DNA of 64,000 nt from Bilabrum cf. latius (taxonomy: Eukaryota): positions 1,488,001-1,552,000 of the forward strand of contig OZ237736.1 of assembly GCA_965178125.1 (NCBI GenBank). The letters run 5' to 3'. The position numbers were made by a program, and so were the translations under genes. Numbering within the stretch: position 1 is the first letter of the stretch; the number at the start of each line of letters is the position of its first letter. Below are positions 6,121-43,490 of this stretch, piece after piece. Under the pieces are notes generated by a model. That model did no database searches, was not told where the DNA came from, and saw only the letters and a program-made list of their open reading frames with translations.

Positions 6121-6350
6121 ACTCCTCTTTAACTCGATTTCAACTTATTCCGTCTTTGAAGTCTCTACCTTGGCGTTGGCATTTGACTTGTTCGAGAGAA
6201 GTTCTAAAACCAGGTTGGGCGAAATAGACTAGGTCGTTTCCCCCCAGCTCGTTCTGTTTGTCAGTCGCTGGTTTTCATTCTGCAGCCGCCAACCAGTTGG
6301 CCTGATACATAAACAAGTCACAAACGTGGAGCATCGACTGCCTAGTAGCC

Positions 6351-7946
6351 ATGGCTAAAGCCGGTCCAAGCTCCGAGGAGGTGATCGACCTTGTTCACAG
6401 CGACTTCAGCGAGAGCGACGCGTGCGAAAGTGATGTCGAAGCCCCCGACAGATGCTTCGGCAGAAGTGCAGGAACAAGACAAAGAACTCGCAGTAGCAGG
6501 CATGGAAACCGTAGTGTGTATTCGAACGGCAGGGCACGGTATACAAGTCGCGACCGGTCTGGTAGGTCTAGTCCCGTGTCCACTGTGGCGTCAGGTTCAT
6601 CCAGCAGCAGCACAGTATCGTAGCAGGTGGTGCAGCCATCGATCGAGGCAAGCTCAGGCGCAGCTGCAGGCGGCAGCAGCAGCGCCTCTCTGGGGCAGAA
6701 ACGCGGCAGGCAGACAGTTTCGTGTGTGGAGGCATCTGACGTCTCCTCGGATGGGAGGGCGAAGAGGCGGCGGTAGGAAGCAGCTGGAGGTGTCTCAGCT
6801 GACAGATATGAGTGCGAGGACTGCGGGAAAGTGCTGAGCAGCATGGCCAGCTTGAGGAAGCACATGTCCACTGTGCATCTGGGCGAGCGCAAGCACGAGT
6901 GCAGTGTGTGCGGCAAGGCATTCGGGCAGGCAGGCTCACTCAGGACGCACATGTCCACTGTGCATCTGGGCGAGCGCAAGCACGAGTGCAGTGTGTGCGG
7001 CAAGGCATTCGGGCAGGCAGGCTCACTCAGGACGCACATGTCCACTGTGCATCTGGGCGAGCGCAAGCACGAGTGCAGTGTGTGCGGCAAGGCATTCGGT
7101 GTGGCAGGCTCACTCAGGAGACACATGTCCACTGTGCATCTGGGCGAGCGCAAGCACGAGTGCAGTGTGTGCGGCAAGGCATTCGGGGAGGCAGGCTCAC
7201 TCAGGACGCACATGTCCACTGTGCATCTGGGCGAGCGCAAGCACGAGTGCAGTGTGTGCGGGAAGGCATTCGGGGAGGCAGGCTCACTCAGGACGCACAT
7301 GTCCACTGTGCATCTGGGCGAGCGCAAGCACGAGTGCAGTGTGTGCGGCAAGGCATTCGGGCAGGCAGGCTCACTCAGGACGCACATGTCCACTGTGCAT
7401 CTGGGCGAGCGCAAGCACGAGTGCAGTGTGTGCGGCAAGGCATTCGGGCAGGCAGGCTCACTCAGGACGCACATGTCCACCGTGCATCTCGGGGAGCGCA
7501 AGCACGAGTGCAGTGTGTGCGGCAAGGCATTCGGTGTGGCAGGCTCACTCAGGACGCACATGTCCACTGTGCATCTGGGCGAGCGCAAGCACGAGTGCAG
7601 TGTGTGCGGGAAGGCATTCGGGGAGGCAGGCTCACTCAGGACGCACATGTCCACTGTGCATCTGGGCGAGCGCAAGCACGAGTGCAGTGTGTGCGGCAAG
7701 GCATTCGGGCAGGCAGGCCATCTCAGGACGCACATGTCCACCGTGCATCTGGGCGAGCGCAAGCACGAGTGCAGTGTGTGCGGCAAGGCATTCGGGGAGG
7801 CAGGCTCACTCAGGAGACACATGTCCACTGTGCATCTGGGCGAGCGCAAGCACGAGTGCAGTGTGTGCGGGAAGGCATTCGGGGAGGCAGGCTCACTCAG
7901 GACGCACATGTCCACTGTGCATCTGGGCTAGCGTAAGCACGAATGA
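6351..7946 (+). CDS. Tandem C2H2 zinc-finger protein A (13 fingers) with N-terminal SIM-like motif and basic NLS-like patch
   Basis: Single frame from ATG 6351 to TGA 7944-7946 with three TAGs (6621, ~6774, 7929). One divergent finger (YECEDCGKVLSSMASLRKHMSTVH) plus 12 near-identical 29-aa C-x2-C-x12-H-x4-H units. Confidence 0.93.
6860..7943 (+). repeat. 87-bp coding minisatellite, ~12.5 copies (ZF array A)
   Basis: Unit CACATGTCCACTGTGCATCTGGGCGAGCGCAAGCACGAGTGCAGTGTGTGCGGCAAGGCATTCGGG(C/G)AGGCAGGCTCACTCAGGACG repeated almost identically. Confidence 0.97.
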
Positions 7947-8082
7947 AATATCCGGGGTCGCTTCCGCGCATGTGATGATGCACCTTTCCAGCATCAGCTC
8001 CTTTTAAAGTCTATCTTGAAATCCAGGATGGGCTCCTGGCCGCTGTGCATCCGGATTCCGGAATCCGTAAATCCGCTCCGAG

Positions 8083-8578
8083 CCAGATGTCCCGCACATA
8101 CCCCCCCTGCTCCATCATGCTCCACAAAGCGCGCTGAGACCCACCCATGCCCGGTAGAGCCTTCACGATCGCCTGCAGCACGTCGGAGGCCCGGCCCCCG
8201 CTGTCATCTGCCCGCACCGCCGCCTCCACCATGGCCTCCCCGCCCGCCAGCACCGCTATCAGGCCCTGCTACACATCCCGCGCCGTCGCCGCACACGTAC
8301 ACGCCCTCCTTCACGATGAGCTGCCTGAGCCTGTCAGCCACCTGAGGCTCCAGCATGCGATTCCACACGTACGTCCTGGCTCCCTCCACCACGTGCTGAA
8401 CGTTATCGTCATCATCGTGCCTCCGGTCCTGCGCCGGCTCGCCACCGCGGCCATCCTGACAAAAGGGCACGCCGCGGGTCGCAGCCCACGGCCGCAGCAG
8501 CCCACGATCCGCCCGGACCGGCACACACACGAAACGAAGCAATAACTCACGAAAATCCCGTGCACGCCTATACCACAC
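8083..8578 (-). pseudogene. Degenerate C-terminal fragment of a diflavin reductase (cytochrome P450 reductase/methionine synthase reductase family NADP-binding domain)
   Basis: Motifs RRARDFRELL, TYVWNRM..LRQLIVKEGVYVCGDGAG (frame of ORF 8204-8578) and MMEQGGYVRDIW (frame of ORF 8011-8253) lie in different frames. No FMN/FAD domains and no ATG; abuts the stop of the upstream gene. Confidence 0.6.
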
Positions 8579-17150: not shown

Positions 17151-18737
17151 ATGGCGCGAACCGCTGCGGCAACACCGGATTCTGATGTGGTTGATCTAGT
17201 CAGCGACAGCAGTGAGGGAGAATGGCACGACGTCGACAATGGCACCGCTGGCGTTCCTTTATTTTTTCCTTCGCGTCGTACTGCAAAACCCAGGGTTTCA
17301 CGAAGTAGGCGCAGCGCTCAGCGGGATGGAGCCCGAGTTCGAGAACCAAAGCAGCCATTACCGCATGCTCGCCAGGCTTTTGTAGAGGCATCAAGCAACC
17401 AGCAATCACCATCCGTAGCACGCATGTCTAGCACATGGAGTCCTGGAGCCAACAGCGCGAATGATCGCGTTCATGTGCCAGCTGGTCAGAAGCGCGGCTG
17501 GAGCCGAGGCGTTGCTATCGGCCGTGCCGGTTTTTAGGTCGAAGAAAGCATCAGCAAGAAACGGCGAGCGGAGATTTCAGCCGGCGAAAGCAACCTTTTG
17601 CATACATGCGAGGTGTGCGGGAAGATGCTTTGCTCGATGTAGAGCTTGATGCGCCATGTTACTGTCGTCCATCTCGGGGAGCGCAAGCACGAGTGCAGCG
17701 TGTGCGGGAAGCGCTTCGGGGAGGCAGGCTCACTTAAGACGCATATGACCGTGGTGCATCTCGGGGAGCGCAAGCACGAGTGCAGCGTGTGCGGGAAGCG
17801 CTTCGGGCAGGCAGGCTCACTTAAGACGCATATGACCGTGGTGCATCTCGGGGAGCGCAAGCACGAGTGCAGCGTGTGCGGGAAGCGCTTCGGGGAGGCA
17901 GGCCATCTCAGGACGCACATGTCCACTGTGCATCTGGGTTTGCGCAAGCACGAGTGCAGCGTGTGCGGGAAGCGCTTCGGGCAGGCAGGCTCACTTAAGA
18001 CGCATATGACTGTGGTGCATCTCGGGGAGCGCAAGCACGAGTGCAGCGTGTGCGGGAAGCGCTTCGGGGAGGCAGGCCATCTCAGGGCGCACATGTCCAC
18101 TGTGCATCTGGGTTTGCGCAAGCACGAGTGCAGCGTGTGCGGGAAGCGCTTCGGGGAGGCAGGCTCACTTAAGACGCACATGACCGTGGTGCATCTCGGG
18201 GAGCGCAAGCACGAGTGCAGCGTGTGCGGGAAGCGCTTCGGGCAGGCAGGCGATCTCAAGAAGCAAATGACTGTGGTGCATCTGGGTTTGCGCAAGCACG
18301 AGTGCAGCGTGTGCGGGAAGCGCTTCGGGGAGGCAGGCTCACTTAAGACGCATATGACTGTGGTGCATCTCGGGGAGCGCAAGCACGAGTGCAGCGTGTG
18401 CGGGAAGCGCTTCGGGCAGGCAGGCTCACTTAAGACGCACATGTCCACTGTGCATCTGGGTTTACGCAAGCACGAGTGCAGTGTGTGCGGGAAGCGCTTC
18501 GGGGAGGCAGGCCATCTCAAGAAGCACATGACCGTGGTGCATCTCGGGGAGCGCAAGCACGAGTGCAGCGTGTGCGGGAAGCGCTTCGGGCAGGCAGGCA
18601 ATCTCAAGAAGCACATGACCGTGGTGCATCTCGGGGAGCGCAAGCACGAGTGCAGTGTGTGCGGGAAGCGCTTCGGGGAGGCAGGCAATCTCAAGAAGCA
18701 CATGACCGTGGTGCATCTCGGGGAGCGCATGCGCTGA
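17151..18737 (+). CDS. Tandem C2H2 zinc-finger protein B (13 fingers), paralog of 6351-7946
   Basis: ATG 17151; TAGs at 17535 and 17640, the latter inside the first finger HTCEVCGKMLCSM[Q]SLMRHVTVVH. Twelve 29-aa repeats follow; ends TGA. Confidence 0.93.
17669..18728 (+). repeat. 87-bp coding minisatellite, ~12 copies (ZF array B)
   Basis: Unit CATCTCGGGGAGCGCAAGCACGAGTGCAGCGTGTGCGGGAAGCGCTTCGGG(C/G)AGGCAGGC...ATGACCGTGGTG repeated. Confidence 0.97.
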
Positions 18738-38836: not shown

Positions 38837-41800
38837 TCAAGACTGGAGCTCAGCCGCCAGCTTCCTCCGAGCCCTCAAGTTGAGTCCGATCGCCCCACGC
38901 CACTGGACGAGATACTGCACTCTTCGGTCCCGCAGGTAGTGCCTCTTCGCGCACCAGAACTGCATGGTACGCACGCAGCGAAGATACCGTTCCTTGTCGC
39001 ACTCGCGCGCCGAGCGGAGAATGGCCTCCACCTGCCGCCGCTCCCCGCGCTCCCCGACCCCTGCCCAGATCCAAGCGGGCTGCACCTCCGCACTGGGCGC
39101 CGCTTCCGTGCCTGCCGATCCCACGGGGGCCTTGGGCCTGCCAGGATCCTCGCCCTGCTTGTCAGCTCCGTAGAATGCCTGCAGTGCCAGCGCCAGCCAG
39201 CTCTGGCACACCGGGTGCTCCTCCTCGACGGGCCCTCCGCACCGAGGCACGCCAGCCAGCACGAAGCTGTGCTGGTCCATGCCCATGGCCTGCAGAGTCA
39301 CCCCGCCGGCCGTGGCGAGGCCCGTGCCCCCGAGGTCCTCCAGGGTCATGCTCCCCTCGGGGGCATTCTCCTCGGGGTCCGATCCCTCCACAGCGGGGGC
39401 GGGTGCCTTCTCCTCTAGCAGCTGCAGCGACTTTTGCAGCCGGCGGAACACGAGCCCCGCGGGTGTCGAATCGAAGGTCATGCCATCCGCAGCGCACAGG
39501 GAGCGGAACCCTTCTCCTTCTCCTTCTTCTTCCTCCTGCTCTCCGCCGGTACTAGCCACTGCTATCGGCTGCGCGCCCCAACCGGGCGCACTCCCAGCCT
39601 GCGCCTGCCCTTCTTCCTCTCCGTCCTCGCCCGCCTTGCGGTCTTTCGCGTCGGCCAGTCGCCCGAACGCAGCCCTGGGGCTGGCTCCGCGCATGAGCAG
39701 CAGCAGCACCATGTCCAGCGCAGTGTTCGGGTCGTTGTCAAACTTTTCGGCTGCCTGCAGCAGCGCAACTTTCGGGGGCATGGATCGCCCATAGCCCCCC
39801 GGCATGCAGGTGGCCTAGTTGGGCCGAGCACCCGCTGAGAGGAGCGCAGCCACAAAGTTCAGGTCGCTGGCGTGCTCAGCGGCGGCTGGGAGCGCGTGCG
39901 TTGCGGCGCTGGCCAGACCCGGCCCGTTGGGAATCTCAGTGAGCATGGTGAAGAACGGGTTCATCTGCGCATCCTTGGCGTCGCGCGCCTCCCCTGCCGC
40001 ATCCCCCGTCACGTCAACGCCAGCATAAAAGTCCTCCTCCTCCTCGTCGCCCTCGCCCCCTTCATGTACCGCCACGCGCTCCTCGGGCCGCACCCTGTGC
40101 TCCACGCCGCGGTCCCGCGAGGGAACACAGTCCAAGGGCACCGGATCGCCGCCGTACTGCTGCACCGCGTAGGTCAGTGGGTAGCGCGTGTCTCTCCACG
40201 CTGCGGCGAGCATGGCGGTTGCGGGGCACGACACGCTGTCAGCCAGCATGTACTGCCCGCCAGCCGAGTCGCCCTCGCCCACCTCGCCAGTGAAATCGAA
40301 CCGAATCGAATACCCAGGTGCTGCGTCTCCCCCGGAACCGTCCTCCCCGGCTGCCGTCGTTGCGGTCGTGGTCTCGCCTTTCTCCTCCTTGCCCTCTCCG
40401 GCGGCCTCCCCGGGCTGGGCACTGTCCGCTTCCTCCTCGGCGCCCTCGATCTCGAACAGCCCATCGTCTTCCTCTTCCTCTTCCTCTTCCTCTTCCTCTT
40501 CCTCTTCCCCTGCGGGGTCACCAGACGAAGCTCCGCCAGCCCCGCTCGAGGGACCGACCGTGGCATCTCCCTTGGCGCCTGCTGCTTCCTTACCCTGCTG
40601 CTGGCCCTCCCTCTGCTCCTGCCCCTGCTCGACCCCCGCGCGCCGTGACTTCACCTCCTTGCCCATGGCAGACAGCAGGGCAGCGGCGATCCGCAGCCGA
40701 GCCGAGTCGGCCACGTCCACCGATGCCAGCGCGGCCTCCCTGGCCTGCAGCACGACCGGATCACTCTCGTCAAGCCCGCCCAGCACGTCCACCACGCCCG
40801 CCGTGGCAGCCATCGCATCGCCCACATTCACGCCTTGCTCGTCCCAGCCCAGCAGCGCGCCCAGTTCCTGCCTCCACTGCTGCAGGTCCCGCCTCTGCTG
40901 CTCGTGCAGGTCCCCGCCTCCGTGCTGCAGCGAGTCGAGCGCCTGCTACAGCACCAGGTCCAGCTGCGCGTCCATGCCCACCTCGATGCGGCCCTCCGCG
41001 CCCTCGGCCAGGTCTGCGTCAGCTTCAACGTCCGCATCACCAGCAGGCTTGGCGGGGTCTGCTGAAGCCCCTTCGGTACCGCCCTCTCCCTCCGGCGCCC
41101 TGCCGGATAGTATAGACCTGGCGTCCTCCACGAGCGCCTTCTCCCGCTGGCTGCGCTGCACCAGCTCCCTGAGGTGCATCGCCATGTTCTCCAGATGACT
41201 GGAATTCAGGGCGGCAGAGCCACGCCCTTTGCTCTGAGGTAGGCCCATCATGCCCCAGCTCGGCAGCTGCGACTGTGACTACCGCCCGCGACGAGCCCCT
41301 ACTCTGCGACTCACGCCGACCTTTGCCACGGGCCGCAGCTGGCCGTCCACCACCTGCAGTGAATCGACCTGGTAGTCCAGCTCGATACAGTTCTCCTCCA
41401 GAGCAATGTCCTGCTCCTGCTTGCACTTGTCCAGGGCCGCGCGGTTTGGCGCCATTACGACCAGCTGCGTCCCGTTCTGCCGCAGCAGGGTGGCCATCAG
41501 GGAGGGCCCCGTGGCCGCGGCATCTCCTCCTCCCGCCCCTGCCTCCTCCTCCTCCTTGGCCTCCTCCCCTTGTCCGGCCTGCTCCTCATCGCCCGTCTCC
41601 ACCTTGGGAGCGCCCTCCAGCCTGCGCCGCAGCAGTGCAGCGCGCACCCGACCGGCAAGCTCCAGCACCTCTCTGGCCGCCTCCTCCGCCTGGCCCTGCA
41701 GCTGCAGGGCCTGCGCCTTGGAGGGCACATTGCGGTAACCCCACATGCGGTACCCGCCCCCATCGTTTGCCATGGTGCCTGTGGACAGCTGCAGGGGCCG

Positions 41801-43150
41801 CTCGGAGGGGATGGGCGCGGCCCGTGCAGGGTTGAGCCACTGGATGCCTCTCGCGTGCGCCTCCCTGCGGACGAGTGCGAGGTGCTCCGCGTCCGAGCGG
41901 CGCTGTTCCCTGGCCGCGTGTCGGATGAGCGCGTTTGCAACCACGTTGTGCTTGGACTCGATGGCGTAGTGCAAGGGGTGCGCCCCCACGGAGTTCCTCG
42001 ATGCCGCCATGGAGCCGCTGGCCTGCGCGATGAGAGAGAGGCACTGCTCCGTCATGCCCTCGTCTGGTCTGCCGCCCCAGCCTGCCCGCTTGCTCAGGGC
42101 AGAATACTTGTGCAGGACTGTGCCCTTGTGGGAGCTGGGCGCCACGCCCACCATCTCGGCCAGCGTGACCAGCTGCTCCTGCCGCTTGCGCACGACCGTC
42201 CGAAGCATGCCGGCCATGCGGTAGTCTCCCGGGGCATACCTCCGAAGCACGATGTCGTCCAGCTGGCACATGGCCGCCTCCTTGTGTAGGCTCTTGGCCA
42301 GCCGCAGCTGCTTCTTCCGCATGCCCAGCCTGCTCCTGGAGCTGGCCTCGAAGGCTGCCTTGATGGCGGAGGTGCCCCTGAGCGTGACCTGGTGCACGAG
42401 GGGCTGCCCGCGGGCGTCCTTCACGGTCACGTCCGCGCCCAGCTGCAGCAGAGTCTGCACGCAGGCGACCCGGTCCTGCTGCACGGCCAGGGCAAGCGCC
42501 GTTTCCGCGGTCCTCGGCATGACGCAGTCCACGTCGTACTTGAGGTGCAACACACAGTAGCGAGCGGCTGCCGAGCGGCCAAACGCGGCGCACACGTGCA
42601 GGAGGTTCGCCCGAGACTCGTGGGACTCGCCTTCATCGCGCTGCGCGTAGCCTCCGCGGTGGTAACGGCGGCGTGCGTACTGCTGGCGCACATGAAAGTC
42701 GGCGCTCTGCGACGGCACCTTGAAATCCTGGCACTCCTCCTCGAGCAGACGCCGGAGCTGCTGGTGGTCCCGCCCCACCGCGCACTGCAAATAAGGCTTC
42801 AATTTGCGAAGTGCTACAAGAAACCCTTCGTCCGAGAGCGTGGCGTCTTCAGCGAGTCGCCGGATCTCGGTCGGGCCGTGGATCGCGATGCCGGACGAAA
42901 ATATTTCCTTTAGTGCTGCCGGCGCCGTCGGATCAGCGATGATGTTCACTGCGCAGCGCGCAGCCATTGGCGTATCTATTTCATCGCGCATCGTGGCATC
43001 CTCCTATTCAGGCGGCCGCATGGGATGCTGCGACGGATCTACTTTGGGAAGGCCGTGTGGGGCGGCCGCCTCCACAGCCACGCCACCCAGGACTTTCCGC
43101 GGGGCCTTTCCCCCTGTGGCTTTTCGCGCAGTCTATTTTGTACGGGCCAT
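38837..43150 (-). CDS. Ankyrin-repeat protein (~1437 aa) with N-terminal histone H3 tail mimic
   Basis: ATG 43150 encodes MARTK[TAG][15 protein letters not shown]. The frame runs via TAGs at 43135, 43006, 41281, 40948 and 39817 to TGA 38839-38837. Ankyrin repeats NLLHVCAAFGR, ETALALAVQQDRVACVQTLLQLGADV, HPLHYAIESKHNVVANALI, VAALLSAGARPN; no histone fold. Confidence 0.85.
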
Positions 43151-43490
43151 ACCGCTGCAGAGATTGGCAAACGCGGAGATGGTAATCTGAGGGATGGCAG
43201 CATTCTCGAAAGGGCACGACAATAGCGAGCATACGGAGATCTATACATCGAGTTTGCCAATCAGCATGCTTGAACATGTGTTGTTCTGATATACACAGAC
43301 TCACATGCTCAATCCTTGCCGCGTCGTATGTAGCACTTGTGTTCTTGCACCCAAATCGAGTCCACTGCCGGTGGCAGTCTCAAACGTGCACGCTACTGAG
43401 GCCCGATTTGGGCCCGCGGCAGGGGACACGGCGTGGATACCACTCGCTCTAAAAGTGATTTGGAACTCTGGCGACGTGCGCGAGTCAGGA

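Follow-up and report, generated by a model that had tools for sequence, protein, structure and literature searches.

Fast reshuffling of the DNA-reading positions of zinc fingers is known mainly from animals. In PRDM9, the fingers within an array are nearly identical and their diversity falls at the DNA-contact residues; the share of array diversity at these sites is 0.33-1.0 in complete genes, with 0.687 in human, 0.910 in mouse and many others at 0.41-0.70 (PMC5519329, Table 1). The KRAB-ZFP and cyprinid FiNZ-ZNF families are large, lineage-specific and clustered, show selection on contact residues, and place a short conserved acidic N-terminal element before a tandem C2H2 array (PMC10547256). 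Wells et al. (2023) describe expanded zinc-finger (ZF) families as rare outside animals, where Argonaute does the work, and regard ZF-based targeting of mobile elements as a likely animal innovation (PMC10547256). The nearest unicellular precedent that we found is the C2H2 expansion of Bathycoccus prasinos, with 48 copies whose short N-termini bear a strongly acidic stretch (PMC3491373); the portions of that paper available to us contain no analysis of homogenisation or contact sites.

The family described here is not a member of PRDM9; it evolves in a PRDM9-like manner and is organised like the KRAB- or FiNZ-type families. It shares with the latter the large lineage-specific membership, the clusters, the contact-site pattern and the short acidic N-terminal element ahead of a tandem array, but differs in its non-animal host, in the short SIM-like form of that element, in far stronger homogenisation of its fingers and in the lack of a KRAB domain by Pfam; the comparison with FiNZ is indirect, and silencing is a proposal in the present case. 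Like PRDM9, it combines near-identical fingers in each array with diversity at DNA-contact residues, and its contact-site shares lie in the PRDM9 range. Unlike PRDM9, it has no KRAB, SSXRD or SET domain, its unit is 87 bp with H-x4-H spacing rather than 84 bp with H-x3-H, and the signature is family-wide, whereas PRDM9 usually comes first or close to first when hundreds of ZF genes are ranked (PMC5519329). The arrays mostly have 8-16 fingers, against 2-6 in Bathycoccus (PMC3491373). Bathycoccus apart, a literature search whose coverage excludes most subscription journals returned no protist with a PRDM9-type minisatellite repertoire that spans a whole gene family.

The window, a 64,000-nucleotide stretch of DNA, corresponds to positions 1488001-1552000 of the contig labelled C2 in a 48.6-Mb, 111-contig eukaryotic assembly. 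Gene A (6351..7946, plus strand) begins with an ATG at 6351 and continues as a single 531-aa open frame to a TGA at 7946, with three in-frame TAGs read as Gln. Its 3' portion, from 6807 to 7937, encodes 13 C2H2 fingers. The first (6807..6893, plus strand) is divergent and lies outside the homogenised array; many members of the family, but not every one, carry a finger of this kind. The other 12 form a minisatellite (6894..7937, plus strand) of 87-bp units with the pattern C-x2-C-x12-H-x4-H and the linker LGERK in place of the canonical TGEKP. TRF reports 12.5 copies with 95% matches, and nine of the 12 units are distinct at the DNA level. The first-pass annotation had described 12 near-identical 87-bp units with H-x4-H spacing and an LGERK-H linker, whose residues at -1, +3 and +6 read in order QST, QST, VSR, EST, EST, QST, QST, VST, EST, QHT, ESR, EST, and every element of this description agrees with our analysis.

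Within array A, position -1 is Gln in five fingers, Glu in five and Val in two, +3 is Ser in 11 and His in one, and +6 is Thr in ten and Arg in two. The sole additional amino-acid difference is in the last linker, where a TAG at 7929 changes E to Q under the code of this genome; synonymous variation occurs at six other codons. The earlier statement that variation is confined to -1, +3 and +6 thus holds for array A, this linker codon excepted, but does not extend to the family, where about half of the within-array diversity lies elsewhere. By simple arithmetic, with 23 non-structural columns of which four are canonical positions, the chance that all three variable columns are canonical is 4/1771, but array A is the most extreme of 58 arrays, so the valid test is the family-wide one. 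Some alleles of array A are two or three bases apart (TCA/CAT, ACG/AGA), and CAT is found repeatedly in other family members; both facts point to acquisition from paralogues more readily than to new point mutations. The Ser and Thr that predominate at +3 and +6 are small residues that make loose contacts in the C2H2 code (PMC12264921).

The reading frame of gene A depends on the meaning of TAG, which is almost certainly a sense codon in the host genome and very probably encodes Gln, to judge from alignments. The nuclear stops are TAA and TGA. Seventeen dynein heavy-chain stretches of ~10 kb each contain 212 TAGs within long frames, and in columns conserved among dynein paralogues TAG stands opposite Gln in 18 of 37 cases and opposite Glu in 6, a pattern similar to that of CAG. 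Pooled likelihoods for TAG were -2.68 for Gln, -2.86 for Lys, -2.87 for Glu and -3.75 for Leu; assignments to Leu, Tyr or Glu fit worse than Gln and were rejected. Against Gln stand single TAG sites opposite Leu in BiP and opposite Pro and His in PRP8, while of two TAGs in BBS4 one is opposite Gln and the other opposite Leu. A nuclear tRNA with a CTA anticodon is encoded at C23:907607-907679 (locus L085); its identity is highest to tRNA-Tyr and lower to tRNA-Gln, which likewise counts against Gln. The eRF1 gene (C35:455983, locus L130) has TAVNIKS in place of TASNIKS, and a TAG in it falls at what we take to be the equivalent of human Leu69. The Leu69 site of eRF1 is discussed in PMC5304391. 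A code with UAG as Gln and with UAA and UGA as stops is described for Iotanema spirale and some ciliates (PMC5304391, PMC11687900), and the CUA-anticodon tRNA found here agrees with the prediction made for codes of this type; the difference is one of lineage, the present host being probably on the stramenopile side, a weak placement. Oomycetes are among the best named matches of PRP8, but the branch is long and the placement can therefore be no firmer than this. The accessible parts of the literature on UAG as Gln gave no stramenopile case. Contig C111, which carries clustered AT-rich tRNAs including one with a TCA anticodon, is probably the mitochondrial genome, with TGA as Trp.

Two of the in-frame TAGs mask a 152-aa N-terminal part of gene A at 6351-6806, which is absent from the first-pass annotation. 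That at 6621..6623 (plus strand, read as Gln) is matched with zero differences by read contigs of runs X1 and X7, and that at 6774..6776 (plus strand, likewise read as Gln) by contigs of runs X1 and X5. Runs X6 and X7, which are RNA by guess only, partly cover the N-terminal region without joints, a coverage that speaks neither for nor against expression. Small introns that would excise the TAGs were rejected on the absence of joints in the read contigs and the single frame kept across the family. The 152-aa N-terminus matched no Pfam family at E 0.01, and the whole protein matched only zinc-finger families.

Gene A shares short flanks with its paralogues. The stretch from ~6133 to 6800 has 74-83% identity to six paralogous genes, and its upstream part (6133..6350, plus strand), co-duplicated with the closest paralogues, is likely a promoter or 5' UTR. 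Downstream, 8029..8466 (no strand assigned) is co-duplicated with 83-86% identity to paralogue loci L041, L044, L046 and L048. It contains a 50-aa minus-strand frame without a Pfam match, which ends at a splice-acceptor-like site and is presumably similar to the end of a diflavin reductase. We considered gene A as part of a transposon and rejected this, as the flanks common to paralogues are short (~220-480 bp upstream, ~440 bp downstream) and subfamily-specific; no terminal repeats were noticed in the flank alignments.

The window holds a second family member, gene B (17151..18737, plus strand), which encodes 528 aa on the same plan with two in-frame TAGs. Pfam finds only zinc fingers in it, as in gene A, and the earlier remark that no SET or KRAB domain is visible is therefore upheld for both. 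In its eighth finger (18216-18302) Gln replaces the first zinc-binding His, and this finger may act as a spacer. Elsewhere in the window, the minus strand at 38840-43300 encodes an ankyrin-repeat protein that may mimic a histone, as a stretch close to its start (MARTK-TAG-TARKATGGKAPRK) resembles the H3 tail.

A search of the assembly with a four-finger query gave 443 candidates, of which 150 were scored, so that all counts are lower bounds. The 44 stretches fetched, together with the window, yielded 64 reading frames with at least two fingers, and removal of one duplicate left 63 frames with 690 fingers; these loci were picked by similarity to gene A, and divergent members are accordingly under-sampled. 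The family comprises at least ~60 arrays, both dispersed and clustered, on a shared plan of an acidic SIM-like motif, a basic NLS-like pair, one divergent finger and a homogenised 87-bp array. The C-x2-C-x12-H core, five-residue linker and code-type residues at -1, +3 and +6 are those of classical tandem C2H2 proteins. In gene A the acidic motif (6375..6434, plus strand) has a V-I-D-L-V core followed by an Asp/Glu/Ser-rich tract, which we take to resemble a SUMO-interacting motif (SIM), a consensus for which our literature search found no paper. The paired basic clusters (KRGR ... KRRR; 6699..6773, plus strand) are presumably akin to a bipartite NLS. Among the 59 family genes with an N-terminus longer than 70 aa, 58 have the [VILY][IV]DL-hydrophobic core with a D/E/S-rich tract after it and 56 the basic pair; no match to a stricter form of the acidic motif occurred across 55,288 aa of dynein and PRP8 sequence. 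Between the members of 18 disjoint paralogue pairs, pN/pS was 0.17 for the SIM-like motif, 0.30 for the basic pair and 0.89 for the linker between them, and 22 of 24 N-terminal indels were in-frame. The resemblance to PRDM9 drawn in the first-pass annotation stands for the mode of evolution, homogenisation with contact-site diversity, but not for the organisation, a family of ~60 or more with a SIM-like N-terminus.

Database matches listed for the family were generic C2H2 proteins at no more than 50% identity, and among the 150 listed the best-matching stretches lay in the finger region or adjoining it. Metagenomes gave 19 matching loci, mostly at 27-50% identity with one short segment at 65%; a phage search gave no relatives, and atlas matches were generic. 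Four tandem ZF genes at C3:1159074-1174317, spaced by ~4.5 kb, have N-termini at least 99.4% identical, 11-14 fingers and changed -1 residues, and represent either very recent array remodelling or partly an assembly effect. A 516-bp repeat with a T-rich 3' end occurs in near-complete form 17 times in the 357 kb of ZF loci and once in 406 kb of other DNA. It inserts inside or directly after arrays, some of which are truncated or split, at loci L041, L044-L048, L055-L057, L067, L074, L080 and L113, and is not present in the window.

We quantified diversity within the 58 arrays that retain four or more fingers (556 in all) once the first and last are set aside. Within-array pN/pS was 3.25 at -1, 2.93 at +3, 1.69 at +6 and 0.82 at +2, and the pooled value for -1, +3 and +6 was 2.64 (2.35-2.98 by bootstrap over arrays), ratios that are neither formal tests of selection nor tree-based, since arrays and fingers are not independent (a caveat likewise made in PMC5519329). 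At non-contact sites pN was 0.049 and pS 0.136 (pN/pS ~0.36), with structural columns near 0 and columns 4, 21, 22 and 25 at 0.9-1.4. An excess of amino-acid change at base-contacting residues is thus present, as counted without a tree, and the uniform spread over the repeat that would have spoken against the first-pass annotation was not seen. The contact-site share of diversity, a statistic from PMC5519329 computed with -1, +2, +3 and +6 as the positions chosen in the present analysis, is 1.0 for array A, the highest value among the 58; the medians are 0.49 for the family and 0.27 for 190 control arrays from 270 retrieved proteins run through the same script. Nine family arrays surpass every control, and 48 of the 58 lie above the 95th percentile of the controls. 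When end fingers are included, the share is 0.54 for array A and the medians are 0.37 for the family and 0.25 for 241 controls. Median amino-acid identity among fingers is 0.86 in the family versus 0.60 in control arrays.

The alleles are of the code type: Q, E, V, R and L at -1, S, H, N and D at +3, and T, R and K at +6. They are preferred to equally close mutational neighbours. Across 627 fingers, the +6 neighbours of ACG are Arg 150, Lys 101, Met 6, Ala 5, Pro 0 and Ser 0, and the +3 neighbours of AAT are Ser 140, His 138, Asp 80, Thr 10, Tyr 2, Ile 1 and Lys 0; the favoured residues at both positions are base-reading residues of the C2H2 code (PMC12264921). Asp at +2 accompanies Arg at -1 in 16 of 22 fingers, compared with 78 of 605 otherwise, although 7 of 13 records with Asp share one 9-nt haplotype; an Arg-Asp pair at -1/+2 is described for the C2H2 code (PMC12264921). 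Alleles combine almost freely, with 110 triplets, 55 of 60 main combinations and mutual information of 0.07-0.15 bits.

Array order decays quickly. In nine paralogue pairs with N-termini at least 98% identical some triplet order is kept (0.54 versus 0.37 after shuffling), but in 16 pairs at 95-98% identity it is as after shuffling (0.16 versus 0.16), and one pair at 99.7% has 18 and 9 fingers with 3 of 16 triplets in common. Between distant paralogues, finger consensuses differ at 0.09-0.26 of four-fold sites and N-termini at 0.50-0.67, a contrast that misalignment of the N-termini may inflate; the far closer synonymous sites of the fingers point to conversion between loci. Conversion does not move whole recent units between distant genes, as none of 1079 distant pairs has a common finger at 98% identity. 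The per-site ratios and the scrambling between paralogues support the earlier proposal of a rapidly reprogrammed DNA-recognition module in a protist.

We conclude, from sequence comparisons, that these genes very likely form a functional, diversifying family of DNA-binding proteins, with gene A as one member of a lineage-specific, sequence-specific repertoire. The proteins would bind DNA in the manner of Zif268, and unequal crossover and gene conversion, acting both inside single loci and from one locus to another, would reassort a common pool of -1/+3/+6 alleles into new specificities. Selection may keep this pool diverse because the targets change, the targets being putatively mobile DNA in the form of virophage-type insertions, transposons and repeats. 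The SIM-like motif could recruit SUMOylated co-repressors, with E(z)/PRC2-type silencing as a possible outcome, and silencing by the family would replace that guided by Argonaute. For the model in full, a protein-guided, SUMO-linked silencing repertoire against mobile DNA, we consider the case evenly balanced. Its strongest version, an independently evolved, protein-based adaptive genome defence in which a unicellular host without RNAi aims SUMO-linked silencing at endogenous virophages and transposons through converted finger alleles, is tentative and in our judgement somewhat doubtful.

The proteins might instead be ordinary lineage-specific transcription factors of host genes, with arrays scrambled by minisatellite turnover and contact sites varying as the least constrained positions. 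Several non-contact columns do evolve near the neutral rate, as does the N-terminal linker at 0.89, most contact alleles can be reached from a hub codon in one step, and Bathycoccus offers a precedent for a C2H2 expansion with an acidic N-terminal stretch (PMC3491373). However, pN exceeds pS 2.6-fold at contact sites, Arg and Lys at +6, which require transversions, total 251 against 6 for Met, a transition, and stable targets fit badly with complete scrambling at 2-5% divergence. We therefore regard this explanation as unlikely. An identical diversifying signal is expected if the proteins track fast-evolving host repeats, such as centromeric or subtelomeric satellites, or take part in drive-suppressor conflict, with a stabilising rather than defensive role. 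In the proposal of Wells et al. (PMC10547256), animal ZNFs serve mainly to stabilise repeats, and the 516-bp repeat is dense near the ZF loci. No satellite target was identified, however, and ~60 dispersed and clustered paralogues with differing codes suggest many unrelated targets, which makes this a still less probable account.

Silencing of mobile DNA by the ZF family can be considered alongside the rest of the genome. A Piwi-domain search, whose control matched in two prokaryotic genomes, gave no Argonaute match in the assembly, although absence is not proven by one assembly, and RNase III gave one match, a lone domain without the other Dicer families; RNA interference may have been lost. 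A SUMO-like gene and an E(z)-like gene (CXC+SET) are present. Transposons carry PRC2 marks in a number of unicellular eukaryotes, a diatom among them (PMC11982613). The Pre-SET family of SUV39/SETDB1-type proteins was not found in the scan of 10 of the 13 non-viral SET loci, which covered three of these ten in part. At C7 ~1144000-1171000 (L155-L157) lies a low-GC island (30-46%) of ~27 kb with a virophage-type major capsid, an rve integrase and a cytosine methylase, together with frames that resemble lipases and helicases, and a tRNA-Met. The frames of the island contain TAG at many in-frame positions, as though they had adapted to the code of the host. Four other places, on C3, C5, C9 and C25, have a tRNA gene next to a small SET match of similar type and are probably further copies. 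A target scan with a coarse recognition code, a weak test, gave the silencing model no support: on the C7 viral island, the only one scanned, no array out of 54 outscored its finger-shuffled controls, and in two host sets two of 54 and none of 54 did so.

The virophage-type insertion implies virus pressure on the host, as would be expected if the proteins served in antiviral sensing or restriction, binding the DNA (or RNA or protein) of incoming giant viruses or virophages and working via SUMO away from host chromatin. The SIM-like motif is conserved in keeping with such a role, but so is the NLS-like pair, which argues against it, and we think it improbable. More improbable yet is a role as PRDM9-like specifiers of meiotic hotspots that recruit a histone methyltransferase in trans: the array statistics resemble those of complete PRDM9 genes and two Spo11/TopoVI-A genes are present, but genes A and B lack SET, KRAB and SSXRD, none of the 18 SET matches in the genome coincides with a ZF locus of our collection, the species tabulated for PRDM9 carry 1-8 copies of it against at least ~60 genes here, and, in the accessible parts of the same survey, vertebrate orthologues without KRAB and SSXRD show no fast ZF evolution (PMC5519329). 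Pseudogenes or assembly artefacts, to which the three TAGs of gene A under the standard code and a few family loci broken by frameshift or insertion might point, are very improbable given that TAG is a sense codon, that read contigs reproduce two of the three gene A TAGs (at 6621 and 6774), and that conserved motifs, in-frame indels and locus-specific unit variants argue for function; the artefact concern of the first-pass annotation is thereby answered for the N-terminal region that the reads were compared with, rather than for the array.

These findings have implications at several levels. The genome is apparently a further case of UAG as Gln, and annotation under the standard code would thus break many of its genes, the ZF family included. 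The family constitutes a natural combinatorial library on one finger scaffold for study of the recognition code. A protist with at least ~60 fast-reshuffling arrays and no detectable Argonaute makes the claim of an animal innovation directly testable. If true, the defence reading would unite PRDM9-style array turnover with a KRAB-style role outside animals.
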